Source: Christensenella sp. | GTDB lineage: Bacteria > Bacillota > Clostridia > Christensenellales > UBA3700 | NCBI GenBank assembly: GCA_022784465.1 | Contig: JALFUR010000010.1 | Location: 256,856-320,855 of the forward strand | Length of the DNA: 64,000 bases | Reading direction: 5' to 3' | Shown: positions 12,001 to 30,757 of the stretch, in pieces | Position numbering within the stretch: the stretch's first letter is position 1 | How the letters are laid out: every line of letters begins with the position of its first letter | Program-made: the position numbers and the translations under genes | Notes under the pieces: generated by a model | Databases searched by the model: none | What the model was told of the DNA's origin: nothing | The model's input: only the letters and a program-made list of their open reading frames with translations

Positions 12001-15000
12001 GCTCCATCTCCACAATCCGCAATACCTATTCCTGCAATACCAGAAATGTATACATTGTCTGAGCCATTACCAAGTCCTGTATTTGTACCCATAATACCAG
12101 CGATACCATCAAAGATCTGCTTCTGATAATATGAACCATCTTCTTTTTGAGGAGTATTACTTGTGTACCAAATCAAGTTTCCATATCTATGAACATAAGT
12201 ATATGAATTTGTATCTGAAGCAGGTTGACTTCCGTCTGAGCCATATAAAATTGTGTTATATCTTCCTGCTATATATCCCCAACTTCCCCAGTTGGCACCA
12301 ATTGAAGCAAAGTTGAACGAAGTGCAATCTAATAATTTACCAACTCCAATTGTATCTCCGTTGTGTTTCATTGGATTAGTAGCATCTACTGTTCCTTCTT
12401 CACATCCAACACCAATTAAACCTCCAACATATAATCCGTTATCTGAACCTTTGCTAGATTTAGCATTTAATAATGCCCCTGCCACATTTGTAAATCCACA
12501 ATTACTTATATATCCAGAACTGGTTACTCCTGCTATTCCTCCAACGGCATATGAGTTCATTGCGATGTCATCTGCGCCTGCAATTAATGTGCCCTCATTT
12601 CTAAATGAACAATTTTGTATTACTCCAGAGATATCATCTCCATTGCCCTTATTGTATCCAGCAATTCCGCCTAAATAAGAATTTTTTGAACCAGTTGAAG
12701 CAAATACGCCTTGATTTGTTATAGAGGTATCATGTATTTTTCCTAGATTATATCCAGTAACGCCTCCCATATACTGGGTAGTTGCCCCTGTTTGGAAAGC
12801 ATACTTTTCTATTGTGGTATTAGAGTTCTTTGCTAAAATAACCATGCTCTTAATGGTGTCTTTTTTCGTAATTGAATAATAATTTTTATCCGCAGGAATA
12901 TCCAAGCCAGACTCTCCTTTGTATGGAGAGGTATATGAAGTATTTTGAATTATACCATTTGTATCATTAATTCCTGTATATAATCCAAAATATGCACTTA
13001 ATGCACTTCCTGTCACCAAAGTTGAAGGATATTGCGATTCTTTCTTATATGAAGAAGTTTGTATCCATGAGTTTGTAACAGTATCTGGTGTATTTACATA
13101 AATATATTGCATTGTACCATCATTGGACCCGGCGATTAATCCATAGGATAATTTATAACTTGGATCTCCGTATATTTTTTGCTCTCTTCCTTGATATACT
13201 TCTACTGGCTTAATGGTACCATCTTTCGTTCCAATAATTCCTTTATTTATTCCTACAACATTTCCTATTGAAGTATTCGCATATGGATATCCATTTACAT
13301 ATTGTTTTATATCTTGATATTGTCCTAATTCCGTAGTTGATCTAGGTTGAACATCCATATAAGTGTATAAGAAAATATTTTGCAATGTTCCATAGTTTAC
13401 AGCAAGCAACATTCCAACGCCATAATATTTCTCTCCGTTTACGCTCGCATATCCTCTAAATTCATCATTTGTAAACTTTAAATAATCCGATGTATACCCT
13501 ACAGTTGTTTCTGAATATCCTACATTTTCAATGCCAGCATTGCTTGAATGTTTGTCTGAAGTGTTACCTAGATAGTAATTATAAATACCATGTCCGTTAC
13601 CATCAATTGTCTTATACGAAGGAAGAATTCTACTTCCGTTATATGTTGTATTAAAGGTAATATTTGCAGCCAACTTATATGTTGTTGTTTGAGAATATGT
13701 AGTTCTGTCATAATATCTCGAATAAATAAAGTCGAAAATTGCTACGTTCGATTTAGAACCAGGATCAATAACATTAATGCTCATCGAGTTGAATCTGTCT
13801 TTTGAAGTATTATAATCATTACCTCCCGTTGTAGAGGATACAGGAATAATTAGAATTCTAACAAAAGCAATACCTTCTCTTGGAACCGCGTCTTCACCAT
13901 AGTCATAACCCGTGATACCTTGTACTCCGTCTTGATCTGTAGATGTGTTTCTAGATGCGCCAGTCGTAATATAATTTATTGAGCTTGCATCGCTAGAACT
14001 ACCTAATGAGTAATTGTTTATGTATAAAGAATCTACACCGCTTTTCCATGCATATTTTATTACATATGAAGTTGCACTTGTTACAGAATCGCTTGATGAA
14101 ACATATTGAATGTCTTGAATATATAAATAATTGCTAAATGTAGATGCAACTCTTGCTCCGCTTGTATTGAAAAATGATACTTTTGTAAAATATTTAGAAT
14201 AATCTGATGCAAACGAATCTATTCTAGCATCTTTATTTACGTAGATAAAATCATAATATCTTGGATTTGCAGCTGTAGGATTAGCAACTTTAGTCGCATC
14301 TAATATTGAATCATATAAAGTTTTTGTATCATCAAGCGTAATTAACAATTTAGCTTGTGTTACCATATATGCAACATTATTTAAAGAAGATGCTGTCAAA
14401 TCATTTGTTTCTGCAATACTAAACGAAATAGTATAAGATCCAGAGTTTAAAATTGTTGATACACTAGAAGAATTTAGTTGATTATCTAAAAATGTATTTG
14501 TCATTGCAACATTAACATAATGAATTGCAGAATCGCTTGTTATTATTTTTACTCTTGAACCTTCCATAGCAACAGATCTTATACCTGTTACCAATAGAGG
14601 GTCAATAAATGGATTGATTCTTGTATATGGATTAATTTCAACTCCGTTATATACTTTTTGATTATCTCCTGTCCAGCTTAATTCAATTGTTGTTTGATTG
14701 ATGGTATAAGTATATGTATATATCGCTTTTTTTACATTATTGTTTACAGGATACGTGTATGTAATAATATATGTTCCAGCATCTTGTATTGGTTCTCCTG
14801 CATCTTTTATTGAAGATAAATCAGAGTTTACTGCTGTATATGTCATTGTACAAATTGGCGTATCTAGAGATATTTTTTCAGAAGATTGGGCTTTACCATA
14901 ATAAGAAGACCATGAGAATGTATTAAACAAACTCCATAAAACCGCTTCATCGTCAATTATCTGAGCATATTGATTGTCTGGAACGTTTTGCGCCATAAAA

Positions 15001-17703: not shown

Positions 17704-18321
17704 TTAAGAGGCAGAATTAATAATTTCCGTTCCTATTGTAAATGAGATTTGAGTTGAACTTAAAGTCTCAGGAAATAACTCCTCAGATAGATCAAATTTA
17801 ACAAAGCACAAAATATAACCAGTGCCATTTGTAATGTTATTTATAGAAATATAGTTTGTTCCGCTAGAAGGCTTTATCCATGTTGATGGCTCGCCTTTTG
17901 CGTCTGTTGAAAAATTAAAAGAGCTATCCTTTATAATAAAGCTATAGCTTAAATTTTCATTTAAATAACTTACATAATTAGAATCTAAATTATAAGCGTT
18001 TCTTTTATAGTTAACGCCTGTAATATAAAATTTAACATTAATAGGTGTTGAAGAGGTAGATATATATTTTAGGCAATACACTCCATATATTCCGTTGTCT
18101 CCAGTAACCGCCTCATAATTATCTACATTTGGATTAGTAGCAGCAGGAGAAAATCCTGTGGATTTATCTCCTATTACTAAAGATAAAACCGAGCCGGTTT
18201 CACTGGTAATTTTAAAAGTAAAATCTACTTGTCCTGCGGAATAAAAGGCAAATGTTGTTCCGCTTAAAGCGGCTAGAACAACAATTAGCATTAATATAAT
18301 TACTATTCCGCTTTTTTTCAC
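17704..18321 (-). CDS. Small secreted protein with SipW/TasA-class signal peptide (205 aa); minor fibre subunit candidate
   Basis: N-terminus MKKSGIVIILMLIVVLAALSGTTFAFYSAGQ (K-rich n-region, hydrophobic core, GTxFAFYS motif). GTG start overlaps the upstream TGA stop (GTGA). AAGGAG lies 8 nt upstream. Confidence 0.6.
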   Translation of the reverse strand: MKKSGIVIILMLIVVLAALSGTTFAFYSAGQVDFTFKITSETGSVLSLVIGDKSTGFSPAATNPNVDNYEAVTGDNGIYGVYCLKYISTSSTPINVKFYITGVNYKRNAYNLDSNYVSYLNENLSYSFIIKDSSFNFSTDAKGEPSTWIKPSSGTNYISINNITNGTGYILCFVKFDLSEELFPETLSSTQISFTIGTEIINSAS

Positions 18322-18971
18322 TCTTCGCTCCTTGTTATTGTTGCATTTACATAATTGCCCGACTCTTTTTTCTTTATTGTCATTGTTCCAATAAGTGCAT
18401 TTGTCGTAACTTTTGGAACAGTCTCACTATCTATATAAACAGTTTCAAGTTGCGGACATCCCGAAAAAGATGTTCCTAAAATTTCACTTACGCTACTTGG
18501 TATTACTATACTTTTTATCAAAGAAAACGACTCCATATATTCTGCAGATTTAATATTTATTTTTGTAACAGACAAATTCTTTGTCGTTCCAGATATGTAC
18601 CAATTAATACTTGCAGGTACTACTAAATCCTCGTATTCACCCATAGAGCCTGTATACCCAATTAAAGATACGCTAGTAAAACTTGTACTCTCCACCGTAG
18701 GAACTACTTCATCGCTATATAATTGAAACCCAATAAAAGCATTATTTTCGCTTGAATACTTCAAATAGTAATTTCCCTCGCTATAGTTAGCTTGGAAAAT
18801 CATGTACTTATATGTTGTATTGCTAACTGTAATTACAGGTGAATCCTGCCCTTCAATATTTATCGAAGGATTGCCACCCCAGAACGCAACGGCAGTAGAG
18901 GTAACTGCAATTACTATAATTGCAATTGTAAGAGAATAAACTATTAACAATTTAGTGCTAGTTTTTTTCAT
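18318..18971 (-). CDS. Small secreted protein (217 aa) with SipW-class signal peptide and a short BspA-type leucine-rich-repeat segment
   Basis: N-terminus MKKTSTKLLIVYSLTIAIIVIAVTSTAVAFWGGN. The C-terminal half has IKSIVIPSSVSEILGTSFSGCPQLETVYI, matching the pattern IPxSVxxIGxxAFxxCxxLxxIxI. Start overlaps the upstream stop by 1 nt (TAATG). Confidence 0.6.
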   Translation of the reverse strand: MKKTSTKLLIVYSLTIAIIVIAVTSTAVAFWGGNPSINIEGQDSPVITVSNTTYKYMIFQANYSEGNYYLKYSSENNAFIGFQLYSDEVVPTVESTSFTSVSLIGYTGSMGEYEDLVVPASINWYISGTTKNLSVTKINIKSAEYMESFSLIKSIVIPSSVSEILGTSFSGCPQLETVYIDSETVPKVTTNALIGTMTIKKKESGNYVNATITRSEE

Positions 18972-19801
18972 TATTTAATCTCCGCTGCTAAATAAAACAT
19001 ATATGTTGATCCCTGGTAATAAGGACTGCTAAACGCAAAAGGCTTGTTAAATATTTTGTCGGTAGAGTTATATCCGCAAAAGCCAATATATATTCCTACA
19101 TAGTTTTGCGTTCCAGCATTGGATACTTCTTTTTCATATTCAAGTCCTATGCCGCTTATTTTTGCGCTTGTGTATCCTGTGCCATTTCTTACGACTTTAC
19201 TTTCTGCACTTTTCCAATAATCAAACTCGAAACAATTAGTAACATAGGCTTCACCGATTACTATATGTGTTACTTTGTTATTTGTATTATCCCAAACAAC
19301 ATAGAAACTACTTGCACCTTCACCTGTAGGATACGAATCTACGCTATTTGAATAAAACCTTGTATCTTCTCCAACTGCTGTAGTATTCATAATTGCCGCA
19401 ATATCGGCAATTGCCTCAGATAAAGAGCGCGAATAAGAAGCCCCAAGTTCAATTATTACTTTGCTTAACTTTATATAAAATGTTACATTCGTTGGCGCTT
19501 GCGCCCTATATGGAAAATTTATGTCTATTGAATATAGATAATCTGCCTCACTCTCACCATAAGGCTCTCCTGTAGATTTAAAACCTTCCTGTCCTCTATA
19601 TGGATCGACACTAAAATCTTTACTTAAATCATAATCTGTTTTAGATTCTGTTCCTGTTCCTAAAACAACTACGGTTGGAGTTCCTGATTCCATATCAAGA
19701 ATCAAGGACGCCGTCATGGAATCAGAGAACCACGCATACGTACTTAATAATGCTATAAATAGCACTATTATTACTAATATGGGTGCCACTCTCTTTTCCA
19801 T
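18971..19801 (-). CDS. Secreted protein (276 aa) with SipW/TasA-class signal peptide; fibre subunit candidate
   Basis: N-terminus MEKRVAPILVIIVLFIALLSTYAWFSDSMTAS (YAWFSD matches the SipW-cognate signal-peptide class). Tightly packed in the operon, 9 nt after the upstream gene. Confidence 0.6.
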   Translation of the reverse strand: MEKRVAPILVIIVLFIALLSTYAWFSDSMTASLILDMESGTPTVVVLGTGTESKTDYDLSKDFSVDPYRGQEGFKSTGEPYGESEADYLYSIDINFPYRAQAPTNVTFYIKLSKVIIELGASYSRSLSEAIADIAAIMNTTAVGEDTRFYSNSVDSYPTGEGASSFYVVWDNTNNKVTHIVIGEAYVTNCFEFDYWKSAESKVVRNGTGYTSAKISGIGLEYEKEVSNAGTQNYVGIYIGFCGYNSTDKIFNKPFAFSSPYYQGSTYMFYLAAEIK

Positions 19802-19810
19802 TAAGAATAA

Positions 19811-20626
19811 TCATTCTCCTTTTTCTTCGCTGTTTGCAGGAGCACTAGGAGCATCTTGAATACTATCCTCTTTTTTTGCATTTAACATTGCAAGATACTC
19901 TTCAATTGCCTTTTTCTTTATTTCTTCCTCGTCTAATGGCTTATCTACTCCGGCCAATTCTTTTAATATTGATGCTTTTACATCTTCTAAGTCTTGCTTG
20001 CTCTTTTCTTCTATTCTCTTAATCCTTGCATTTACAATTGCACGTATAAACACAATCACATTATAAATAAGTAGGGCCGCAAGCGGAATAACAACTGCCC
20101 ACAAAAAGTTAGTTGCATCTTGGAACCATCTAATGAATTTACCAACTTTTGGTATTACCTTTACAACTTTTCCTTGAATAGTTCCCTCAAGATATCTGAT
20201 GTCCTTACCTTCGGCTTCTGCATCTCCCTTTGTATAATAATATTGAACATCTAAATCTTCCCTATATTCAACTTTTGTAATTCTGTGGGTAATCCACGCG
20301 CTTTCACCATTTACAATTCCCCTATAGATAACTACATCTCCAACTTCTAAGTTGCGTTTTTCCTCGTCTGTTAAACTTTTAATAATTACTAAATCGTCAA
20401 TTGCAAAAGATTTTATCTTGTACCTGTCTTCGTTTCCATCCATGGAAGCAGATAAAACAACTGTTAAATTATATCCATCCCCCAATTCTTTATTAGTTAC
20501 TTTAGATCCGGTAATAACAGCAATAGATAGCACAATCGAAGCAATGATAATCATTATTTCAATAACCATAACCACTATATTAACGATTTTTTTAGTCTTA
20601 CTTTCCGGCTTATTATTCTTTGCCAT
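19811..20626 (-). CDS. sipW: Signal peptidase I, SipW (archaeal/ER) type, paralog 2, with C-terminal TM segment and charged cytoplasmic tail
   Basis: N-terminal TM, catalytic-Ser box VVLSASMDG, GDVVIY, His box ITHRITKV, second TM (FLWAVVIPLAALLIYNVIVFI), K/E-rich tail. AAGGAGA RBS. Confidence 0.7.
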   Translation of the reverse strand: MAKNNKPESKTKKIVNIVVMVIEIMIIIASIVLSIAVITGSKVTNKELGDGYNLTVVLSASMDGNEDRYKIKSFAIDDLVIIKSLTDEEKRNLEVGDVVIYRGIVNGESAWITHRITKVEYREDLDVQYYYTKGDAEAEGKDIRYLEGTIQGKVVKVIPKVGKFIRWFQDATNFLWAVVIPLAALLIYNVIVFIRAIVNARIKRIEEKSKQDLEDVKASILKELAGVDKPLDEEEIKKKAIEEYLAMLNAKKEDSIQDAPSAPANSEEKGE

Positions 20627-20639
20627 TTTTTACTTCTCC

Positions 20640-21521
20640 TTAACCGTAATATTCTACATCGTCATCAAATGCTTCAACGTCAAACCAGAAATTAATTGTA
20701 CACTTTCCGCCTAAAATATCATTTACGCATTGTTGGTCTGTTCCTTCAAACCAAATAACTACTGTAAATTTCTTTTGTTGAGCATGAGATAGTTCTCTAC
20801 CAGTTTCTTTCATTACATAGAAACCGTCATATTCGTCATCTTCTGTATATACTTCTCCTAAGAAAGGAGTAGTTGTTGGGACTTGTAGCAATGGATACGA
20901 CACATTAAGCTCACTTAGAGTCAATCCAACTTGAGATTCTTTACAATCGTCATACGCTACATATTCTGCCGTTCCATCGGCTTTAGCTTGTGCATAAACC
21001 TTAGTATTGCTTGGCCTATTTTCCACATCATCCTCGTCTTCAATAATCATTACTCTAATTGCTGACGCGGTATTTAATGTGTTTTTAACAATTTCAACAC
21101 CCATTGTATATGTACATTTTCTTGTAGGGCTATTGTTAACTAAATAGAAACTATATGCAATATATGAAGCGCCGTGGTGTCCACCTTCGTAGCCAAATAT
21201 ATCTGCTTCCATATTTAGCCATGTGTAGGTATATGCGCCCAAGTCTTCTGGTCCTTCCATATTAATGTTTGTCGTCCTATCCTCAGGTTTTGAATCCTTA
21301 ATTTTAGATAAAGAAAGACCCTCGTTTATATTACTTTCTTTTATAGAAATTTGCATAGAGTTAGCATTAATAAAAGTCAAAACACCATATGTTCCACCTG
21401 TTAAAAGTAGCGTAACCAATAAAACAACAATAATAACCTTTGTTGCAGTACGTGTTTTACTTGCAGCCTTGATCATTTTGTTCTTAATAATAGCGTCTTG
21501 TTCTTTCTTTGTTAATGCCAT
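20640..21521 (-). CDS. TasA/camelysin-like secreted or membrane-anchored protein (293 aa) with an N-terminal cytoplasmic extension
   Basis: About 25-aa basic N-region, then TM VIIVVLLVTLLLTGGTYGVLTF. The C-terminal FTVVIWFEGTDQQCVNDILGGKCTINFWF resembles the TasA/camelysin C-terminal F.F.DNG.DQN.FQGD...F pattern (recalled from memory). Confidence 0.5.
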   Translation of the reverse strand: MALTKKEQDAIIKNKMIKAASKTRTATKVIIVVLLVTLLLTGGTYGVLTFINANSMQISIKESNINEGLSLSKIKDSKPEDRTTNINMEGPEDLGAYTYTWLNMEADIFGYEGGHHGASYIAYSFYLVNNSPTRKCTYTMGVEIVKNTLNTASAIRVMIIEDEDDVENRPSNTKVYAQAKADGTAEYVAYDDCKESQVGLTLSELNVSYPLLQVPTTTPFLGEVYTEDDEYDGFYVMKETGRELSHAQQKKFTVVIWFEGTDQQCVNDILGGKCTINFWFDVEAFDDDVEYYG

Positions 21522-21527
21522 TTTTCC

Positions 21528-22244
21528 CTATTTTTGACTATTTATATATTCTTCTATAGCCTTTTTCTTTATTTGCTCTTCTAATTCTTTTTGCTTATTT
21601 TGTTGCTCTAAAAGTTGTTTTAGTTCCTCTTCTTGTTCTTTCTTTAGTTTCTCCTCTCTTGCTTTTGTATTTTCTTTAACAAAAATAACAATTTGCCAAA
21701 TCATAATAGCAAATAGCGGTATAACTATTACTGTAACGAACCCGTACCACTTAGACAAGAATCTTGCAAGAGTAGAAATAAAACTGCTTGTTCCCACAAT
21801 TTTACCTTGTATATTATCTACAGGAATAGGAACCCTATCGTCAGGAGATCCTAGTTTATCTCCTCTTGTTTTTACATACCATGTATCTGTTTTTTCATCA
21901 TAGTAAGGGTCTTCTACTATTCTATGAGTTACAGTATATCCCTCTAAACGGTTGTCTTTATCAAAACCATATGGTGCTATAAAAGCTATGACATCTCCTG
22001 CTTTATACTCTTGTGGCGTTGGGTCTTTATCCGCCTTACAAATAACCACATCGCCAACGTTGTAAGTTCCCGTCATAGAATCTGTTACAACCCTATATGT
22101 AGAATATCCAAATAAATTTGGAGTTTGTCCACATATTTTTTGTGCAAGTATTGTTAGTAAACATCCTACCAAAAATAGAATGATTACCCACTGCAAAACC
22201 TTTAGAGCAACATATATATGTTTTTTTACTGTTTTACTGCTCAT
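21528..22244 (-). CDS. sipW: Signal peptidase I, SipW (archaeal/ER) type, paralog 1, with C-terminal TM segment and coiled-coil tail
   Basis: N-terminal TM, Ser box RVVTDSMTGTYNVGDVVICK, His box VTHRIVED, second TM (FVTVIVIPLFAIMIWQIVIFV), K/E-rich tail. Start overlaps the upstream gene by 11 nt. Confidence 0.75.
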   Translation of the reverse strand: MSSKTVKKHIYVALKVLQWVIILFLVGCLLTILAQKICGQTPNLFGYSTYRVVTDSMTGTYNVGDVVICKADKDPTPQEYKAGDVIAFIAPYGFDKDNRLEGYTVTHRIVEDPYYDEKTDTWYVKTRGDKLGSPDDRVPIPVDNIQGKIVGTSSFISTLARFLSKWYGFVTVIVIPLFAIMIWQIVIFVKENTKAREEKLKKEQEEELKQLLEQQNKQKELEEQIKKKAIEEYINSQK

Positions 22245-23838
22245 TATCTACGTTTTCAATATTTGCATATACAACAGCCTCATCCATTTCTTCGCCTGCT
22301 GTATGCTTTGCAAGTTGTGCATCTAATTGTTCTAAGCGCTTTGTTTCTCTCTCTTCCGCTTTTTTCGCTGCAATTTGTTCTCTTTCTAAGGTCTTTTCTC
22401 TCTTTTGTCTTGCTCTTAAAATCATAGACTTTTCTTTTTCTATTTGAGCAATCAACCTTTCTGCTAATTGTTCTTTGCTATATGACTTATCCAAAACGGC
22501 TGTTGTCTTTGTTGCCGCATTTTCCATCTTAACTTTCTCTAAGACTCTATCAATAGCTTTATTAATACGAGACATTTCAGCTTTTGTTAAAGTTAACTCT
22601 TCCGCAGTTCTCTGGAAAACATCTCTTGTTTCTTCTATAAGTCCTATCTCTTCTGGAATCTCAAACTCTTCGTCCTCGTCTTCCTCTTCTTCCTCTATAT
22701 CTTCTTGATCTTCCTCGTCCTCTTCCTCTTCTTCTTCGTCCTTCTTTTCTTGAATCTCCTCAGGAATGGTGTCTTGATCTATAGCTTCTTCTATTTCTTT
22801 TTCTTCTTCAGATTTTGTCTCTTCCTCTTTTTCTTCTTCTTTTTTCTCTTCTTCTTGTTTTTCCTCTTCAACTTTATCTTTTTCTTCCATATTTGATTCG
22901 TTAAAGAAAGCAGTATCTTCCGTTTTACCTTCAATCAAACCTTGCATTAACATAGAGCCAAGACATATCATGTCTTGAACACCAGTCATAAGTTCTGCAT
23001 CCATGTTGTAAGGTTTAACATCGTTTTCAACTGAGAATCCCATCTTTGTATACGATTCAACAAACTGCCACAAAACAAGCGCTTTTTTAAAGTCTGGGTT
23101 TTTCAAAATAACGTTAGTTCTAGTTATTGGTGGTCTAATTGGTGCAGATCCTACCATTTGCTTTGCAAATGGAGAAGACAAGAAATCTAAGATAATTCTC
23201 TGTATTTTTGCAATTCTTTCAACTACAGATAAATCTTCCTTTTGCATTGATTTAACTTCATCTATTGGTAAAGCACCAATTAAATCTAATTTATAAAATA
23301 TTCTTGTTTTTCCTGTAAATATAGAAGTATCTACATTAAGCTCCATAACGTTATCGTTAATATATGCAGCTTTAATAGCGTCCATACGACGAGTTACGAA
23401 ATTGTTAAGATTCTTTAAAAGTGTATAGATAAATCTGTTTTCATAAACCTCGAAACTTTCCTCTTTTGTAACATTTAGAATCTTATTTGGAGTAACCATT
23501 CCGTCTTCGTCAACACTAGAGATAAAGTTTGTATGTTGAGCAAGGTGTTTAACAGATTCAGTAGATATAGCTCTTGCTAAAGAGATATCTACGATATCTT
23601 CTTCTTGTACAATGAACTTTCTTGGATTTCTAACGATATTATCTAAAGAAACAATACTATCTTCTATTACCTCTACCCATTCAAGGTCAAAAGTTTTTGT
23701 TCTTGTTTTTTTACTTAATTTAATTAAAGGTCTTGCAACTCTCAATTTCTTTTGAAAGTCTGCATAGAATTGCTCAGATTTAAGCATTTTGTTGATATTC
23801 TCAACATATTGATTATACTTTGCTCTATCCTCGTTCAT
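22234..23838 (-). CDS. McrC N-terminal (DUF2357)-like protein lacking a recognisable nuclease domain; long acidic low-complexity tract plus K/E coiled-coil C-terminus (534 aa)
   Basis: IVRNPRKFIVQEEDIV...ESFEVYENRFIYTLLKNLNNFV resembles the DUF2357/McrC-N pattern (..RxPxxxL...DTxENRFxK). I found no PD-(D/E)xK-like motif. There is a ~90-aa E/D/K tract and then heptad-like K/E/R repeats. It starts 22 nt after the McrB-like gene. Confidence 0.5.
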   Translation of the reverse strand: MNEDRAKYNQYVENINKMLKSEQFYADFQKKLRVARPLIKLSKKTRTKTFDLEWVEVIEDSIVSLDNIVRNPRKFIVQEEDIVDISLARAISTESVKHLAQHTNFISSVDEDGMVTPNKILNVTKEESFEVYENRFIYTLLKNLNNFVTRRMDAIKAAYINDNVMELNVDTSIFTGKTRIFYKLDLIGALPIDEVKSMQKEDLSVVERIAKIQRIILDFLSSPFAKQMVGSAPIRPPITRTNVILKNPDFKKALVLWQFVESYTKMGFSVENDVKPYNMDAELMTGVQDMICLGSMLMQGLIEGKTEDTAFFNESNMEEKDKVEEEKQEEEKKEEEKEEETKSEEEKEIEEAIDQDTIPEEIQEKKDEEEEEEDEEDQEDIEEEEEDEDEEFEIPEEIGLIEETRDVFQRTAEELTLTKAEMSRINKAIDRVLEKVKMENAATKTTAVLDKSYSKEQLAERLIAQIEKEKSMILRARQKREKTLEREQIAAKKAEERETKRLEQLDAQLAKHTAGEEMDEAVVYANIENVDNEQ

Positions 23839-23860
23839 CTATTTCCCTCGTGCACTTATA

Positions 23861-25405
23861 TTAGAACAACTTCTTCAATCTCATTAAGTATTCCTTACAT
23901 TCTGACATATTCTCTTCACCAAAGTGATCAGATAAATATTGTATATATGCGTCAATTTCATCACGAATGAAACCTAAGTTCAATGATTCAAACTTACGCA
24001 AAATCTTATTACACAAAACGTAATCTAGTCCATCAATCTCTGTACCGCCACATGCAACATATACAGGAACGAATTCACGCAACTGCTTAACAATACGGTT
24101 ACCAAATGCCAAACGGAAGTGTTCAATAACATAATCATCCATTTCTTCGAATTTTTTTAAATTCTCATCAGATACTTTATGCTCTTCTTGTGCTTTTGCA
24201 AATAATGCTTCAAGTGTCTTATAGTTAACAGGGAAATTCTCTGTTAATGGTGCATCAAAAGCTGCTGCTTTTGAGTTAATGTTTATAGGCATACCTCTAT
24301 CGTAAACCTTATCTGAAATAGCGAATGTAGAGTCGTCGTTATTAGCTGTTCCTACATACCACATGTTTTCTGGTAATCTAAAACGTCCTTTTTCTATATG
24401 AATCGGATCGGATGGCCAACCAGATGGTACTAAGTCAATAATCCATTGTGCTCTAGATGGCATTTCCAAAATAGACAACATTTCAGCGAAATAATACTCA
24501 ACACGCGCGATATTCATTTCGTCTAGAACTGTTATATATACATCGTTTGTATAAGTAGCTTCATACATTTTCTTTAAAACTTCGGTTTCGTTGAAACGCT
24601 TAGTGAATTCGTTGAAATAACCGAAAATTTCGGTTCTATCACGCCATGACGGTTGAACAGATGTGATTGTTGTTGGATTATTAAAAAAGTGTCCTAAACA
24701 TTCTGGCAAAGATGTTTTACCTGTACCTGAAATACCTTGAAGAATAATAAGTCTACTTGTTGCCATACTAGCTATAAATAAACGAATAATCTTAATCTCA
24801 TAATACAACTTACGCCAAGGTCTTTCTGGATTATTTGCAGCATAGAATCTAATTCTATCGCAAAGCTGCTCTAGAGTGAAATTATCGTCATATTCTCTAA
24901 CAGGAGCATTTGGACCATTGTATATTTCGTCAACTTCTGTTAATTTATAGAAACGACTTTCTTTATGAACAACACCCTCTTCTCCTTCTTTCTTTTCAGC
25001 ATTTTCATCCGCAGTATCTTCAAGTAACCCTTCATTTCCATATCCAGTTACTTTCATACCTAAAATCTTATCTTTTTCTTGATTAAGTTTAATAATTTGT
25101 CTTTTTAAATTGTGAATTTCATCAACAAGATCCTGGTTAACAACCCTCGATCTTAATTTTCCAGCAAATCTAACAAGCCCCCATACAACAAGCCAGATAA
25201 TACCAACTAATACGATAACAACAGCAAGAACAATTAAAATAGCTACCGCCCAATTTCCTCCAGTCCATGTGCTACTATATTTTACAAAAGTAGCATAATA
25301 ATTTGGGAAATTGAACATGTTATATATTCCTCTAAAAATCCCTAAAAAAATCTCGCTAATTCCGCCCCATAGGACGCCTAGAAAATCCTTAATAAAATCT
25401 GTCAT
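23861..25405 (-). CDS. Membrane-anchored McrB-family AAA+ NTPase (GTPase-type motifs), 514 aa
   Basis: N-terminal hydrophobic segments (WAVAILIVLAVVIVLVGIIWLVVWGLV). Walker A LQGISGTGKTS. VQPSWRDRTEIFGY (cf. McrB FHxSYSYEDF). VLDEMNIARVEYYFAEMLSILE (cf. DEINRANxxxxFGELxxLLE). LPENMWYVGTANNDDSTFAISDKVYDRG (cf. GTMNTADRS..D.ALRRRF, contains NxxD). Confidence 0.7.
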   Translation of the reverse strand: MTDFIKDFLGVLWGGISEIFLGIFRGIYNMFNFPNYYATFVKYSSTWTGGNWAVAILIVLAVVIVLVGIIWLVVWGLVRFAGKLRSRVVNQDLVDEIHNLKRQIIKLNQEKDKILGMKVTGYGNEGLLEDTADENAEKKEGEEGVVHKESRFYKLTEVDEIYNGPNAPVREYDDNFTLEQLCDRIRFYAANNPERPWRKLYYEIKIIRLFIASMATSRLIILQGISGTGKTSLPECLGHFFNNPTTITSVQPSWRDRTEIFGYFNEFTKRFNETEVLKKMYEATYTNDVYITVLDEMNIARVEYYFAEMLSILEMPSRAQWIIDLVPSGWPSDPIHIEKGRFRLPENMWYVGTANNDDSTFAISDKVYDRGMPININSKAAAFDAPLTENFPVNYKTLEALFAKAQEEHKVSDENLKKFEEMDDYVIEHFRLAFGNRIVKQLREFVPVYVACGGTEIDGLDYVLCNKILRKFESLNLGFIRDEIDAYIQYLSDHFGEENMSECKEYLMRLKKLF

Positions 25406-25471
25406 CGTATATATCTCTCTCTTTATAATTGTTTCATATACGCGGGCTCGTGCACCCGAATAAATGATATG

Positions 25472-25501
25472 AACTAGCCCTAAGAATGCTTAGGACTAGT
25501 T
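25472..25501 (-). terminator. Hairpin downstream of the major-subunit gene (attenuator/terminator)
   Basis: 13-bp stem with one mismatch (AACTAGCCCTAAG / CTTAGGACTAGTT) and a 4-nt loop, 22 nt after the stop at 25523. Followed by a moderately U-rich stretch and a GC-rich mini-hairpin (25442..25458). Confidence 0.55.
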
Positions 25502-25522
25502 TAAAGACGGTTATGTGGTTAA

Positions 25523-26449
25523 TTAAGCATTTTTTGATGTGAATGCGTATCTAATTGTGAATGTTGCATTGGCAGCAGAAGCATCGGCTGTCCATCCATC
25601 AATCCATGTATAAATTGCTAGGTTAACATAATCATTTCTAGCAATATTACCAAAATCTACTTCATATGTAACATATGTATTGTTTGTAACTAATCCCATA
25701 TTAGTTTCGTCTTGATTAGGAGTTTCCCCTACAGTAGTAAAGTAAGTTGTCAAGTTTGGGTTAGTATAATTAAATTCACTAGCATTTGTATCTGTTGCTG
25801 TTTTCAATGTAGAACCGCTTGGAGATACATATCCAGAACTTGCACTAGAAGCAATCTCTGCGCCTGATTCTGCACCAGATGTTATACCTTCTACCCAATC
25901 ATATCCATTTGTTGCATATAATCCCTTATCATTGCAAATTGCAAACTTTGTTGCAGCTGCTGCGTAAAATGAAGAGGTTGATGCTTTGCTACCATCCGCT
26001 AAAACAAGAACAACTTTCAAAACTAGATGTTTTTGAGCATCTTTTGCAGTATTAACAACCCTAATAAAAGCTGGGTCCTTTGCAACGGCATTACCGTTTT
26101 GCGTTACCGTTCCACCGCTCTTTGTTGCTGTATAGAAAGTTGCTCCGTCTGCATAAGTTGCTTGCAAAGCTTTTGAAATTTTTGTATTAATAGCCGCAAT
26201 AGGTGAATACAATCCAGCAAACGCCTTATCTGAAATATCGATTTGGTCTGAAGATGCTCCTGCAAACGAAACGGTTGAACCAGTTTTATTACCTAAAACT
26301 AGAGCCCAATCTGCTGATGCTTGTGTAGTCATATTAACATTAGCTACAGCAATTGATGAAGCAGAGAACCATGCATATGTAGCTGTAGACAATGCTACTA
26401 CTACAACCACTATCATTGCGATAGTTGTAATTAATGTGCTTTTTTTCAT
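25523..26449 (-). CDS. TasA/camelysin-like candidate major fibre subunit with SipW-class signal peptide (309 aa from the corrected start)
   Basis: Corrected start MKKSTLITTIAMIVVVVVALSTATYAWFSASS at 26449, preceded by AGGAGA 8 nt upstream. The track ORF start at 26572 adds 41 basic residues with no RBS. C-terminal YVNLAIYTWIDGWTADASAANATFTIRYAF parallels the 293-aa paralog. It has its own promoter and terminator. Confidence 0.6.
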   Translation of the reverse strand: MKKSTLITTIAMIVVVVVALSTATYAWFSASSIAVANVNMTTQASADWALVLGNKTGSTVSFAGASSDQIDISDKAFAGLYSPIAAINTKISKALQATYADGATFYTATKSGGTVTQNGNAVAKDPAFIRVVNTAKDAQKHLVLKVVLVLADGSKASTSSFYAAAATKFAICNDKGLYATNGYDWVEGITSGAESGAEIASSASSGYVSPSGSTLKTATDTNASEFNYTNPNLTTYFTTVGETPNQDETNMGLVTNNTYVTYEVDFGNIARNDYVNLAIYTWIDGWTADASAANATFTIRYAFTSKNA

Positions 26450-26512
26450 AATTTTTCGTCTCCTTTTATGAATTTTGTATTTTTTTATGTGCTTGAAATA
26501 AAAATACATGCT

Positions 26513-26541
26513 TTTATAAACTTTTAGATGCCTTTTGTAAA
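26513..26541 (-). promoter_or_regulatory. Sigma-A-like promoter for the major-subunit gene
   Basis: Minus strand: TTTACA, 17-nt spacer, TATAAA, about 65 nt upstream of the ATG at 26449. A 7-bp inverted repeat TTTGTAA/TTACAAA overlaps the -35. Confidence 0.5.
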
Positions 26542-26603
26542 CAAACCACCGTCTTACAAATTTGTTTAACATTGCATGCAGTTATATTTCTTTATAGCCT
26601 TAT

Positions 26604-27734
26604 TTATTTTTTCTTTTTTGTTGGACGAGAAACGTTAAGTTTAATAACATTTGCTCCTCTAACAATTTCTTTATCTTTATCTGTAGATTTTTTCAAACCT
26701 GCAAATTCTTCATTTGATGTTGCAACCTGACCAGCTTTTAGTTTTAATGCTTTTTTCTTTTCTTCTTCAATTTTTTGTTGTCTTTCTTTTTCTAGTCTTT
26801 GCGCTTCTTTTTCCTTTTCTAAAGCTTCTTGTTCAAGTCTCAATTGTTTTTCACGTTCTCTTTCTGCAACTTTTTTAGCAGCTGCTGCTGCAAGTCTTGC
26901 TTTTATTTCGTCCCTTTGAGAAGTTACTTCAATTACAACATTTTCTTCTTTTTCTGTTTTCTTATCCTCTACTGATGGAGCATTTTCTGCTTGAACAATA
27001 TATGTTTTTTTGTCTTCTACAGCTTCATCTTTTGATGCTGTAACAAAAGCGTCAACTTTTCTTTTTGGTCTAGAAAATGCAGATCCTGAGAATATTGTTA
27101 TATTATTATCAATAAACATATCAATATTGTTTTTATCTTTAACATTTCCAACAACCATAGTTATATTGTTTGCTTTTGTCAATTGAGACAAGATAGATAA
27201 CAATCCTTTATTGCTTGAATTGTAATATCTATAATCAAGCAAAAAATAACTTGCAGGATATTTTGTCAATACATCAACCGGAGCCTTATCTACACCTTCA
27301 ATCATAATTGTTGCACCAATGCTTGTTAAAAACTTTAACCCAGCAAGAGCTGCTTTATCTCCAAATTTTTCTAGTTGATAAATATCAAAGCACAAAATTA
27401 AATTTGGTTGCAAAATTGATCCCAATCTATGAACGTTGCCTTCTGCTAGTAGTTTAGCTGAAGCCTTGTAGATAAAAATCTGATCGAAATATTTCCTATA
27501 GTCTTTTTCAAAGTTCTTTAACGCTAAAAAATTCAACGTTACAATTCTATTTGAAGTTTCTGCTGTTGGTCCATATTGCCATGGATACATAGAACCAAGA
27601 ACATCATCTTCTAACACCTGCCATACTTCCAAAAATTGTAATTGAGATTCTTCGTTGTAGTATGGGTTGTAATAGTAGGTAATAGGATTTTTTACAGCAC
27701 TTTTAGATTTTGCTTTTGCACTTTTTGTCGACAT
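26604..27734 (-). CDS. Degenerate (probably catalytically inactive) EAL-domain-like protein with C-terminal K/E-rich coiled coil (376 aa)
   Basis: The order and spacing of EAL blocks is kept but catalytic residues are replaced. LEVWQ..(EALxRW); PWQYGPTAETSNRIVTLNFLAL (P.eFi.lAEe.gli..l). LKFLTSIGATIMIEGVDKAPVDVLTKYPASYFLLDYRYY (L+..G..iaiDDFGtGyssl..L..lp.d.lKiD). ITMVVGNVKDKNN...IFSGSAFSRP (viAEGVE...QGy.fs.P). Confidence 0.45.
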   Translation of the reverse strand: MSTKSAKAKSKSAVKNPITYYYNPYYNEESQLQFLEVWQVLEDDVLGSMYPWQYGPTAETSNRIVTLNFLALKNFEKDYRKYFDQIFIYKASAKLLAEGNVHRLGSILQPNLILCFDIYQLEKFGDKAALAGLKFLTSIGATIMIEGVDKAPVDVLTKYPASYFLLDYRYYNSSNKGLLSILSQLTKANNITMVVGNVKDKNNIDMFIDNNITIFSGSAFSRPKRKVDAFVTASKDEAVEDKKTYIVQAENAPSVEDKKTEKEENVVIEVTSQRDEIKARLAAAAAKKVAEREREKQLRLEQEALEKEKEAQRLEKERQQKIEEEKKKALKLKAGQVATSNEEFAGLKKSTDKDKEIVRGANVIKLNVSRPTKKKK

Positions 27735-28402
27735 ATAAACCCTCCTAACCTATTATTACTACATTTTGATGTATTTTCATTTTAGCGATTTTATTAAATG
27801 CTGTCAATCTTCTTATTATTATAATAAGTCTATAAAACGCATATTTTATTAAAATTTTAAGTTTTTTTTAAGACCATTTTTTGGTTTTAAATAGCAAAAA
27901 AAACAATACATATTATGCAATTTTACAATTTTGAAAGAGATTAAAAAATTATCAAAAATTTCGTTTGTAAAATTTTTTTGACATATTTTTTACATAAAAT
28001 TCTTTACCATATTGTCCATAATAACTTGTGTTTTGTGAATAAAATTTTGCAATTTTTTTCAACAATTTTGCATAAAACAACAAAATATTGTGTTAGAAAA
28101 ATTCAAGACCACAATTTGTTGGGATTATTGTTCTTGTAGTCTTAAGAAAATTTTTTAAATGCTTCACAATTTTTAATTAATGTAAAATTTTTTGGAATTT
28201 TTAATAATTTTGTTAAAAGATATCATGCATAAATTGTCCTTTTTTCTACAAAAAGCCTGGGGTTAAGAAAATTTTCTTTTAAAATAACCTTAAATTCTAT
28301 AATTATCTTTTTTTATATATATTTTTTATTTATTGATTTTTATTTATCCGTATTATATAATTTATTTACAAAAAAATATAAATTATAACTAGGAGGTTAT
28401 TT

Positions 28403-30757
28403 ATGAAAGACAAAAAGTTTTTAGCCAAACTCATTGCGGTTATTCTTGTTGTTTCAATGCTTTGTGTAGGCATGTTTGCATGCAAAAAAGATGAAAAACC
28501 AAAGCCTGAACCAGACAAACAAGAAGAAGAAAAATATGATGCAGTTACACCTCTTGTAAATGCTGTTGTAAAGAGTTTGGAAAATGGTGACATGGAAGAT
28601 CTTGTAGTTTCTGGAGAATTAGGTCTTGGCCTAAAGAACGGAAACAACACTTCTAATTACAAAATTTCTCTTGATTTAGATTTAAACTTATATAATGGTT
28701 CTAACGAAGAATCTAATACTTCTTTACAAGCAGAAATTAAAGACGGAGATAGCATAATTTTCGGAATGTATTATTATGATTATTCTTCAAAAAATCAAGG
28801 CTCAGATGCTTTTGCTGATGGAAAACTTTATATGCAATATAAAGATGGCACTGCAATGAAAAAGATTGCCATTACTGTTCCTCAGGTTAATGCTACAATG
28901 AAAGCTTTGGATGCTAAAGTAGACTTCTCTAAGATTGATTTATCTAATATTGATATCTCTAGCGCTGCTACAATTTTATCCGTTGTTTCTTCTATTACAG
29001 AAGTTGATGCTGCAGATAATACAAAGTTCACAGTAAACTTAACAAATGTATTAAATAATTTTGCTGATATTTTAGGCGGTATTGATTTAAATGGTGAAGA
29101 TATGCCTCTTGGAATCGCTCTAAAGGGTTCTGATTTAGCAACAATTCTTCCAGAAATCGAAATCGTTATTGATTATGATTTAAAATCTAACGGACATTTA
29201 GATAAATTAGATGTAAACTTAAAGCTATCAGACAAAGATATCATTATCAATAAGGTAGATAATAAACCTCTTCTTGTTGTTGGTATGAATGGTGCTGTTG
29301 AAGTTCATCCTACATTAAAATTCGCTGTAAGCAAAAGTTCTGCTCCGGTTGTTGTTACAGGAGCATACGATGATCCAGTGATAAATAAAACAGAAAGCAA
29401 ATATGTAAATCAATCATTAATTAACGCTCAAGTTTCTATTGGTTTGAAAGTTGATCAAGACATCGCTCTAAACGTTATGGATGGATTAAAAATTAACTTG
29501 GCTGCAGATACATACACAGCTAAATTAAAAGTTGATGCTGATCCTACTGTTATCTTAGGCAAATTGTTCAGCTATGTTCCAGCAACTGAATATGTAGCAG
29601 GCGAATTTTATTTTGAACAAATAGTTAAAGATAAGTTGTATGTAAGAGCAGATAATGTTACAGCAGCTAATGTTACAAATTACTATGTAAGAGTTGCTAA
29701 CTTAGGCTTTGATGGATTTGGCGCTATCTTAGATACCATTTCTTCAATTTTAGGTTGCGTAAACGCTCTTGAACTTGAAATCGCTGGTTCTACAGCAGAA
29801 AACGTTCCTCTAAAATTATATGCTGCTAAAGACTCAAATGGTCTATTAAAAATTACTATTGAGAAACTTGATCTTATTACTAATAACGATGGTGCGCCTT
29901 TACTTGGATCTTTAAGTGGTTTTGAAATTCAAGGTTTAATTAATGCAATTAAGCCAGTTATTATTAGTCTTGTTGGCGCTGATGAAGCAAACAACACAGC
30001 AATCTTTGAAACAATCGCTGGATACTTAACAAATGCATATATTGGACTATTTGCAGATAACGCAGAAAGCTTAGCTGCTGATTACAAAAAGCCAGGCGCT
30101 CATGCTGAAATCAAGATAGATAACATTCCATTCTCTGGATACACTCAATTCAAGGGAGCATACAATTCAAATTATGACTACTACAAGATGACAGCAGAAG
30201 CTAAATATACAGAAGTAAGCATTACAGAGTTTGCTAAAGATACAACATATTACACATATGATGAACAATACAGCAAAGTAGATAAAGATTTAGTTGAAAC
30301 TCCAAAAAAAGGCGTAGAATACTATACAAAGGACGGAGAAACATATACTAAAGTTAATGTATCAGCATGGGAAAAAGGTGTAACATATTACACAAGGGCT
30401 ATGGTATATAATCAAGCTGCTAAATACGAAAGTGGTAAAACATATTATACATATGAAGCTGCTAAGTATACTAAGGCTAATGTAACAAGTGCTGAAACAT
30501 TTGATTCTGAAAAAGCTGCAAGCGTAGATAAAGCATTATATGTTGGTGGTTCAGATGTTAATGCTACAAAACCATTTGGTATTGGTCTTGATGCAACTTT
30601 AGATATTACTAAAGCTGGTGGTCTTGTTCTTAATGCTACTGTAAAGGGTATGGACTTCATTGGTCTTGCTCCTACATTAACAGTTAAGATTTCAAATGCT
30701 AGCGGTTCTCTATTCACATATGATTATCCAACATGGGAACAAATTACTGCTGCTTAA
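28403..30757 (+). CDS. Large lipoprotein (784 aa) with C-terminal YYT(x)nYTK repeats; function unknown
   Basis: AGGAGG RBS. Signal peptide with lipobox LCVGMFAC followed by KKDEKPKPEPD linker. Four ~14-aa repeats (DTTYYTYDEQYSKV, GVEYYTKDGETYTKV, GVTYYTRAMVYNQA, GKTYYTYEAAKYTKA). Confidence 0.7.
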   Translation: MKDKKFLAKLIAVILVVSMLCVGMFACKKDEKPKPEPDKQEEEKYDAVTPLVNAVVKSLENGDMEDLVVSGELGLGLKNGNNTSNYKISLDLDLNLYNGSNEESNTSLQAEIKDGDSIIFGMYYYDYSSKNQGSDAFADGKLYMQYKDGTAMKKIAITVPQVNATMKALDAKVDFSKIDLSNIDISSAATILSVVSSITEVDAADNTKFTVNLTNVLNNFADILGGIDLNGEDMPLGIALKGSDLATILPEIEIVIDYDLKSNGHLDKLDVNLKLSDKDIIINKVDNKPLLVVGMNGAVEVHPTLKFAVSKSSAPVVVTGAYDDPVINKTESKYVNQSLINAQVSIGLKVDQDIALNVMDGLKINLAADTYTAKLKVDADPTVILGKLFSYVPATEYVAGEFYFEQIVKDKLYVRADNVTAANVTNYYVRVANLGFDGFGAILDTISSILGCVNALELEIAGSTAENVPLKLYAAKDSNGLLKITIEKLDLITNNDGAPLLGSLSGFEIQGLINAIKPVIISLVGADEANNTAIFETIAGYLTNAYIGLFADNAESLAADYKKPGAHAEIKIDNIPFSGYTQFKGAYNSNYDYYKMTAEAKYTEVSITEFAKDTTYYTYDEQYSKVDKDLVETPKKGVEYYTKDGETYTKVNVSAWEKGVTYYTRAMVYNQAAKYESGKTYYTYEAAKYTKANVTSAETFDSEKAASVDKALYVGGSDVNATKPFGIGLDATLDITKAGGLVLNATVKGMDFIGLAPTLTVKISNASGSLFTYDYPTWEQITAA

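Follow-up and report, generated by a model that had tools for sequence, protein, structure and literature searches.

Positions 17704..26449 of a 64,000-nucleotide stretch of Christensenella sp. DNA (contig JALFUR010000010.1, positions 256,856 to 320,855; the window hereafter) hold nine tightly packed open reading frames (ORFs) on the minus strand, and those listed in an earlier note on this DNA lie at the coordinates given there. In the direction of transcription they encode A, a major SipW-type substrate of 308 amino acids (aa; 25523..26449), a 514-aa homologue of the McrB-type AAA+ GTPases (23861..25405), a 534-aa McrC-like protein with a DUF2357 domain (22234..23838), SipW1, a signal peptidase I of the endoplasmic reticulum (ER)/archaeal type (21528..22244), B, a conserved bitopic membrane protein (20640..21521), SipW2, a second ER/archaeal-type signal peptidase I (19811..20626), and three further substrates, C (276 aa; 18971..19801), D (217 aa; 18318..18971) and E (205 aa, GTG start; 17704..18321). 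What the earlier note had observed at the locus stands, and the spacing of -11 to +22 nt that it gave for the genes from 25405 to 17704 is borne out by the coordinates, yet it omitted the McrB-like AAA+ gene and the DUF2357 gene. Most likely the locus is a module devoted to exporting and assembling surface proteins, and these two genes are central to the argument developed below.

The GTPase homologue matches the McrB profile of NCBIfam (NF008457) at E=1.2e-7, and its best matches among PDB entries are the McrB structures 6HZ4, 6UT6 and 7VSR at E=4e-8. Its Walker A (GISGTGKTS), Walker B (VLDEMNIA) and signature (TANNDDS) motifs align with those of McrB. The N-terminus carries two hydrophobic segments (residues ~8-30 and ~51-81), which form a predicted transmembrane hairpin with a conserved aromatic outside loop, and these are followed by a heptad-like stretch (VVNQDLVDEIHNLKRQIIKLNQEKDKIL) and then by the AAA+ domain. 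The partner protein is composed of an N-terminal DUF2357, that is the N-domain of McrC (Pfam DUF2357, 39.2 bits against a cut-off of 23.3), an acidic low-complexity linker and a K/E-rich coiled coil; no nuclease family of Pfam, NCBIfam or PADLOC was matched by it, and its sole D..ExK-like string (LD..DEVK) varies to LE and to EVR/EVQ in orthologues. A canonical McrBC restriction system was considered and rejected, since no nuclease was detected and the transmembrane hairpin replaces the DNA-binding domain of the GTPase.

The conservation of these genes was followed in eight GTDB species-representative loci, all from Christensenellales or from uncultured Clostridia metagenome-assembled genomes (MAGs). 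All parts of the locus are kept in the eight, and where the gene order is shuffled (A-SipW2-GTPase-B-DUF2357-SipW1-C-D in L007-L009) no part is lost. Across genera the GTPase is 70-91% identical and the N-terminal 317 residues of the DUF2357 protein are 75-91% identical; the respective values in the GTDB loci are 35-52% for the SipW peptidases and 23-55% for B to E. At the level of sequence, the GTPase and DUF2357 genes thus surpass all others of the locus in conservation, and it is they that define the system. When metagenomes were scanned with the GTPase, at least 389 loci were found, and synteny was counted in those of the best 80 that have enough flanking DNA. The gene immediately downstream of the GTPase encodes DUF2357 in 68 of 70 loci, and the one immediately upstream is a SipW gene in 57 of 66, the others having SipW at another place in the locus, while an ORF with a SipW-type leader is present within 6 kb in 37 of 40 loci and a B homologue within the same distance in 39 of 40. 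The GTPase and DUF2357 genes are therefore strictly co-inherited with SipW, B and an A-like substrate. The hosts include Christensenellales and Ruminococcus bromii, and the largest lineage is labelled Ruminococcus, R. bromii or Oscillospiraceae in NCBI; the cluster of R. bromii-type GTPases has 4126 members on at least 1000 contigs, all annotated as hypothetical. Among the members of the 90% cluster with the R. bromii-type GTPase (511 aa) there are also many proteins of 407 aa named argininosuccinate synthase, apparently an artefact of clustering. The position of the locus is fixed beside the genes of leucyl- and seryl-tRNA synthetase (LeuRS, SerRS), and the locus is vertically conserved within lineages and does not behave as a mobile defence island.

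The two peptidases were recognised already in the earlier note as ER/archaeal-type enzymes, and profile matches together with conserved residues confirm this. SipW1 reaches 61.3 bits with TIGR02228 (cut-off 51.85), only 17.1 bits with TIGR02227, and matches the SipW model NF046067 at E=5e-18; SipW2 matches NF046067 at E=1.7e-13, and its score of 39.5 bits with TIGR02228 (E=4.8e-10) falls below the cut-off that SipW1 passes. The Ser of (D/A)SM, the His of HRI (His, not Lys) and the Asp of T.GD are invariant in 15 orthologues spanning both SipWs. In a phmmer search of SipW1 against the PDB sequences, no Sec11 or signal peptidase match was obtained. SipW1, which has N- and C-terminal transmembrane segments, bears the motif EEQIKKKAIEEYI in its cytoplasmic tail, and the same motif is present in the tail of SipW2 (EEEIKKKAIEEYL); the sequences suggest that the GTPase and both SipW tails share a membrane-proximal coiled-coil architecture. 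In both tails the motif reads EE(I/L)KK(K/Q)AIEEY(L/I) (EEIKKKAIEEYL; 19880..19915 and 21540..21566, minus strand), it is found nowhere else in the window, and the SipW2 of L006-L009 has two copies of it; it may serve for docking. Weak Pfam DUF7198 matches (E 0.04-0.08) were also recorded, and these fall on segments made of a transmembrane helix plus a charged helix, at the N-terminus of the GTPase and the C-termini of both SipWs.

The substrates of the peptidases are marked by their leaders. All five proteins, A to E, start with a basic n-region, continue with a hydrophobic core of ~18-20 residues and then show a motif rich in aromatic residues, and the cleavage regions read MKKSTLITTIAMIVVVVVALSTATYA then WFS in A (..STATYA/WFS), ..LLSTYA/WFSDS in C, ..TSTAVA/FWGGN in D and ..SGTTFA/FYSAG in E. 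Of the five SipW-type leaders that had been claimed, those of A, C, D and E fit the pattern (Y/F/V)A then (W/F)(F/Y/W), while that of B is a variant (TGGTYG then VLTF) with Gly at -1, placed behind a basic and conserved cytoplasmic N-region of ~28 residues. The expression [YFVW]A[WF][FYW][STGAN] has only seven matches in the six frames of the 64 kb window, four of which are the N-termini of A, C, D and E, at residues ~22-31, where 18-21 of the 22 preceding residues are hydrophobic or small. With the leader model TIGR04088 (cut-off 19 bits) only C was reached, and marginally, with 17.9 bits for the full-length sequence and 21.3 bits when its N-terminus was scored alone; A, B, D and E gave no match, relatives belonging to other lineages have scores of 13-16 bits, and the TasA control reaches 41.6 bits. 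By eye, the pattern T-(Y/F)-A/(W/F)-(F/Y)-S parallels T-W-A/A-F-N of TasA, the mature N-terminus of which, A28, was verified against 8AUR (sequence identical over residues 28-261, cleavage after ..GGGTWA). It was shown that, owing to aromatic residues at P2 and P1'/P2', TasA is poorly cleaved by LepB and depends on SipW (PMC10269814), and the leaders of A to E share the unusual aromatic P2 and P2' residues of TasA. Judged from the leaders, the SipW dependence of the substrates is well supported. The reading of the A N-terminus as type IV pilin-like was rejected, except as a part of the tentative motor-filament proposal given below, as neither a prepilin peptidase nor a PilB-type ATPase was found among the proteins of the locus and the motif follows the hydrophobic core.

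Protein A deserves a closer description. Its start is the ATG at 26449, which is preceded by the ribosome-binding site AAAGGAGA, and every homologue begins with MKKS; this conservation and the ribosome-binding site identify 26449 as the real start. The upstream ATG at 26572 was rejected, since it would add an implausible K/R/Y-rich extension of 41 codons (26450..26572). Upstream of A, a promoter-like TTTACA-17-TATAAA was read by eye at 26513..26541 (minus strand) and may serve as the promoter; the block around it, TTTGTTT..AAGGCATCTAAAAG, is kept in low-GC relatives in the DNA alignment. Downstream of the stop codon there is a hairpin of 12-13 bp (25472..25501, minus strand), a candidate attenuating terminator or stabiliser of mRNA. 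The promoter and terminator that had been ascribed to A alone thus find their counterparts in this site and this hairpin, although the T tail of the latter is weak. In an Rfam scan the RNA elements of the window amounted to one tRNA only, with no riboswitch upstream of A.

Homologues of A number ~100 by word search and 1029 representatives by HMMER, none of them with a Pfam domain. Across 88 aligned homologues there is little or no variation in the first 28 residues, the remainder averages ~30% identity, and the C-terminus (..YTWIDGW..FTIRYAF) is conserved. The codons of the leader show synonymous changes in the DNA alignment, including TCT/AGT for Ser, and therefore the constraint acts on the protein. 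How much the mature part varies can be seen from a contig of the same species (L001), with SerRS 100% and LeuRS 99.8% identical to the window and an identical gene order, where the proteins of the locus are 95-99.8% identical except for A (38%) and the start of a giant surface protein encoded beyond E (33%). The DNA identity of ~97% between the two strains breaks between 26343 and 25615, that is at A codons ~36-278, so A can be regarded as an allelic cassette that is conserved at both ends, in the leader/N-terminus and in the C-terminus. Since the same holds for R. bromii, where the major substrate has a median identity of 40% (range 30-100) in 146 contig pairs of R. bromii-type loci with GTPases at least 98% identical, and the medians are 98.9% for B, 95% for DUF2357 and 91% for SipW, the hypervariable major substrate is a property of the system and not of a single genome. 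The AlphaFold2 (AF2) model of A is an all-beta sandwich with a predicted local distance difference test (pLDDT) score of 87 and a predicted template modelling (pTM) score of 0.83, in which residues 19-32 are disordered (pLDDT <50). In one locus (L004, from a MAG labelled 'uncultured Christensenella sp.') there are two extra A paralogues, at 6135-7127 (+) and 7187-8185 (-), situated 2-4 kb upstream of the expressed copy; one of them is devoid of the first 11 codons and the ribosome-binding site, the other has a degenerate N-terminus, and none such is present in the window. By analogy with pilS, these copies look like silent cassettes for recombinational switching.

In the family alignment B shows a basic cytoplasmic N-region (..EQDAIIKNK..), one transmembrane segment and a conserved ecto-domain, and it is 99.7% identical between the window and L001; neither B nor E has a Pfam or NCBIfam match. 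The family of C is narrow, with 14 proteins found, and its AF2 model is beta-rich (pLDDT 69.5, pTM 0.72). D carries BspA-type leucine-rich repeat (LRR)-like repeats in its C-terminal half. The earlier mention of one LRR-bearing subunit is upheld, for D, by the repeat pattern IP.SV.SI...SFSG...L..V, kept in six orthologues, and the Pfam LRR_5 score of 21.9 bits stays below the cut-off of 27.7. No cell-wall anchoring domain (SLH, CWB2 or LPXTG) was detected in A to E with Pfam and NCBIfam.

Are these proteins members of the TasA/camelysin family? The earlier note had regarded them as TasA-type fibre subunits, and none of the comparisons supports it. PF12389 (Peptidase_M73/TasA) has no match at E<=0.1 in A to E, nor in nine substrates from distant loci; a profile of A gave nothing against the PDB sequences at E<=10; and hhalign of each substrate family against mature TasA gave a probability below 1%. 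In Foldseek searches of the PDB, the AF2 model of A has no match at E<=1e-3, with TasA outside the top 50 and jelly-roll-type modules among the weak matches, and the model of C has likewise no match at E<=1e-3, its weak matches being viral jelly rolls and lectins, with TasA (5OF2) at rank 44 and E=0.21. Homology to TasA/camelysin was therefore rejected, as nothing significant was found by Pfam, NCBIfam, PDB profiles, hhalign or Foldseek of the two AF2 models, and the TasA-family membership of the cargo is not supported. On inspection by eye, the C-terminal parts of A, B, C, E and TasA have in common a strand, a loop and then an F.F.F/A strand, and TasA residues 188-201 are where the best local hhalign matches of both A and C lie; this shared C-terminal pattern is only a hint. 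Of the expanded tasA-type operon that the locus had been taken for, the SipW peptidases and the leaders thus remain and the TasA homology does not, and both the GTPase/DUF2357 pair and the hypervariability of A had been overlooked. A label such as 'TasA-like', when drawn from leader motifs alone, can miss the machinery that defines a locus.

Another explanation is that the locus is a plain expanded TasA/SipW donor-strand fibre operon into which the GTPase and DUF2357 genes came as an unrelated defence cassette. It would account for the SipW peptidases and the TasA-like cleavage motifs, TasA/BsaA operons with multiple paralogues are known, and the GTPase does match a candidate defence model of PADLOC (PDC-M26A, E=7.6e-36, through the AAA core). 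Against it stands the co-inheritance of the pair with SipW, B and an A-like gene across Clostridia orders, despite the shuffling of gene order, by which it is strongly disfavoured; the pair is the most conserved part of the locus, the GTPase has a transmembrane hairpin in place of the DNA-binding domain, no nuclease was detected in the McrC-like protein, and TasA homology was not detected. It is considered very improbable. The reading of the pair as a defence island was discarded, as PADLOC offers only the candidate PDC-M26A and the synteny speaks against a passenger cassette.

The neighbours of the locus were inspected as well. Upstream of A lies a gene of an EAL-domain protein with a K/E-rich C-terminal tail (26604..27734, minus strand; Pfam EAL 36.3 bits against a cut-off of 31.3), preceded by a strong promoter-like TTGACA-17-TAAAAT at 27807..27779 (-). 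Its homologue adjoins A upstream in L001-L010 at 52-99% identity, with weaker counterparts (23-34%) in other lineages. On the other side, 259 nt 3' of E and with its own upstream region, a giant surface-protein ORF begins (3..17444, minus strand), which exceeds the window edge as an open frame of >5814 aa and has an ordinary N-terminal signal or anchor; its homologue in L001 has 6144 aa, and the sole Pfam match of the protein is a weak YDG. The DNA identity between the window and L001 breaks again from 17199 downwards, the N-terminal 640 aa of the giant protein being 33% identical, and the ORF is thus a second hypervariable surface gene beside the locus. It is found downstream in L004, L010 and L018 and is absent from most lineages, hence it is probably a lineage-specific accessory. 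Another fast-evolving surface protein is a divergently oriented lipoprotein of 784 aa (28403..30757, plus strand); the two contigs of the same species agree in it at 91%, against 99-100% for its neighbours, and in related species it is only 22-29% identical.

A hypervariable surface protein and a restriction-type GTPase may also be read together as parts of a conflict or defence system, in which the GTPase is attached to the base of a surface structure that acts as a phage receptor, A serves as a receptor decoy or mask, and the GTPase senses or blocks incoming nucleic acid or triggers shutdown. Such a system would agree with the restriction-type sister groups of the GTPase (McrBC and CoCoNuT) and its match to PDC-M26A, and A together with the giant protein would fit a phage arms race. 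Yet no nuclease or effector domain was detected in the locus with Pfam, NCBIfam and PADLOC, and the fixed chromosomal site by LeuRS and SerRS, conserved vertically, is not that of a mobile defence island; this explanation seems quite unlikely to us.

The class to which the locus belongs has been named before. In a single paragraph, Bell et al. introduced CoCoPALM, a large clade of McrB-like GTPases that carry a fused FtsB-like module with transmembrane and coiled-coil parts, have McrC homologues with a coiled coil as partners, are distinguished by a shortened NxD signature and are associated with genes of the signal peptidase family in Bacillota, and deferred its treatment to a future paper (Bell et al., 2024; eLife 2024;13:RP94800, PMC11090510). 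Our literature searches for SipW with McrB/DUF2357 and for R. bromii pili brought nothing beyond this paragraph, and no follow-up paper was found. As far as its sequence tells, the window locus is a member of this named but uncharacterised class, the architecture of which it fits, and is not categorically new. It has in common with the published description the McrB-type GTPase with transmembrane and coiled-coil parts, the adjacent coiled-coil DUF2357 McrC homologue and the signal peptidase genes; it differs in that the description is without substrates, mechanism and experiments. To this description can now be added that the peptidases are of the SipW type, that the leaders are TasA-like, that B is universal, that the major substrate is hypervariable and that the class is present in R. 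bromii, as well as the core gene set (B, major substrate, SipW, GTPase and DUF2357) and the strain-level replacement of the cassette in two Clostridia orders.

With modest confidence, we consider it probable that the locus produces a SipW-processed surface polymer or coat, the assembly of which is coupled to a motor derived from McrBC, and we infer its mechanism as follows. Sec would insert the precursors, and their hydrophobic cores would keep them in the membrane until SipW1 and SipW2 cut after (Y/F/V)-A; owing to the aromatic residues at P2, P1' and P2', the housekeeping peptidase would cleave them poorly. Once released by the cut, the disordered segment at the N-terminus of A would act together with the conserved C-terminal strands in self-assembly into an abundant fibre or coat, with the variable middle of the protein facing outward and exposed to diversifying selection from phages or host immunity. 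B, invariant and anchored in the membrane, may act as the base or initiator, while C, D (an LRR adhesin) and E could be accessory subunits of low copy number. On the cytoplasmic face, a McrB-like hexamer with its McrC-like plug would use GTP to gate or drive the assembly, being tied to the peptidases and/or B via transmembrane segments and K/E-rich coiled coils, and the motif of the SipW tails could mediate this coupling.

Several points weigh against this account. Filaments have not been observed, and nothing shows directly that A polymerises; the sole hints of a donor-strand exchange through its mature N-terminus are the disordered segment after the cleavage site (residues 19-32) and the conserved terminal strands. 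Donor-strand polymers need no cytoplasmic NTPase, so that analogy with them leaves the role of a motor unexplained, and the closest relatives of the GTPase (CoCoNuT and McrBC) are defence systems. For the mature domains, neither sequence comparison nor Foldseek of the A and C models revealed a significant similarity to TasA, BsaA or any solved pilin, and hhalign of the mature regions revealed at most 10% probability of paralogy among A to E, which could thus be independent cargo and not subunits of one structure. The one abundant and four minor subunits of a single fibre, as envisaged in the earlier note, can for this reason only be conjectured, because A to E are not detectable paralogues. 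Two features of the GTPase are equivocal: its N-terminal part has the transmembrane and coiled-coil architecture, yet no Pfam hidden Markov model of FtsB/DivIC was matched there even at E<=10, and its signature TANNDDS reads either as NxD with a second D, the form that Bell et al. describe, or as NxxD, the latter being kept in an ungapped HMMER alignment to E. coli McrB, so that NxD and NxxD are indistinguishable because the sequence reads NNDD.

Independent cargo is the essence of another explanation, by which the locus is a secretion or sorting system for heterogeneous surface proteins that forms no filament, and SipW removes a special leader from unrelated clients. A would then form a variable surface coat or an antigen resembling an S-layer, D would be an LRR adhesin, and the membrane GTPase complex would exert quality control by extracting or clearing the very hydrophobic leaders or stalled precursors, or would gate export. 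In their mature parts A to E have no detectable relation to one another, the conservation of A is far higher in the leader than in the mature protein, as befits a recognition tag, and A is hypervariable like S-layer and flagellin-type antigens. Membrane AAA+ proteins are, moreover, commonly extractases, but we know of no McrB-type GTPase that acts as an unfoldase. The conserved C-terminal strands of A and the segment that follows its cleavage site suggest contacts between subunits, as in flagellin-like polymers, and neither Pfam nor NCBIfam revealed in A to E a domain for anchoring in the cell wall (SLH, CWB2 or LPXTG). We regard sorting without a filament as possible, if on the whole unlikely.

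A more specific form of the polymer proposal is that the GTPase and its McrC-like plug are the cytoplasmic motor of a previously unknown class of SipW-processed Gram-positive surface filament. The subunits of such a filament would be processed by SipW, and not by a prepilin peptidase or sortase, and the leader of A would be the targeting signal; the transmembrane/coiled-coil tails of the SipWs and/or the cytoplasmic tail of B would couple the motor, which would drive or gate the extrusion of the polymer through the cell wall. This form we put forward tentatively and consider rather doubtful. Should it be true, an engine of restriction enzymes would have been exapted for the assembly of filaments, and this in keystone gut species such as R. 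bromii.

What would the broader proposal of a motor-coupled polymer or coat mean? A restriction-type GTPase motor would have been recruited to a SipW-processed surface structure, a link for which no mechanism has been proposed before, in a system that is abundant in human-gut Clostridia. Since A is among the most strain-variable proteins at the locus, it is likely to be a determinant of phage susceptibility, immune recognition or strain-level colonisation. R. bromii is cultured, and therefore the CoCoPALM class is experimentally tractable.

Beyond CoCoPALM, the locus can be compared with several well-known systems. The tapA-sipW-tasA operon of Bacillus subtilis (sipW-tasA-calY in B. cereus) also encodes an ER-type SipW beside its clients, whose leaders end in T-(W/Y/F)-A/(A/W/F)-F-(N/S), its major gene has its own expression signals, and the major subunit is accompanied by accessory proteins. 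Here, in contrast, no PF12389 homology was detected, two peptidases serve five unrelated clients, the McrB-like GTPase and the McrC-like protein are obligatory, and the major protein is an allelic cassette. The sipW-bsaA-bsaB-bsaC operon of Clostridium perfringens is, like the present locus, a clostridial SipW operon with several secreted clients; the BsaA polymers of C. perfringens were reportedly described by Obana in 2020. A functional parallel is that efficient export of the BsaA polymer depends on a machine driven by nucleoside triphosphates, namely the type IV pilus genes, which sets a precedent for a motor-assisted SipW system (Kivimaki et al., bioRxiv 10.1101/2024.11.04.621531). The same report describes the TasA/BsaA-like families as very divergent and often present as several paralogues per operon. 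BsaA, however, is a remote homologue of TasA locked by isopeptide bonds, whereas no TasA homology was detected here, and the present locus is without a VWA protein and without type IV pilus genes, its putative motor being derived from McrBC.

With E. coli McrBC (PDB 6HZ4 and 6UT6) the locus shares the AAA+ GTPase core, the Walker A and B motifs, the N..D signature and a partner with the DUF2357/McrC N-domain, but a transmembrane hairpin and a coiled coil stand here in place of the DNA-binding domain, no PD-(D/E)xK nuclease was detected and the genomic partners are secretion genes. The alleles of fliC and the pilE/pilS loci of Neisseria, finally, resemble A in their conserved termini, hypervariable middle and replacement of the whole cassette between strains, and the likeness to pilE/pilS extends to the 5'-truncated extra copies of A carried by L004, which resemble silent cassettes. 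Flagellin and type IV pilin loci differ from the present one in that their fold and export route are unrelated to those of A, and neither a prepilin peptidase nor a PilB-type ATPase was found in the locus described here.

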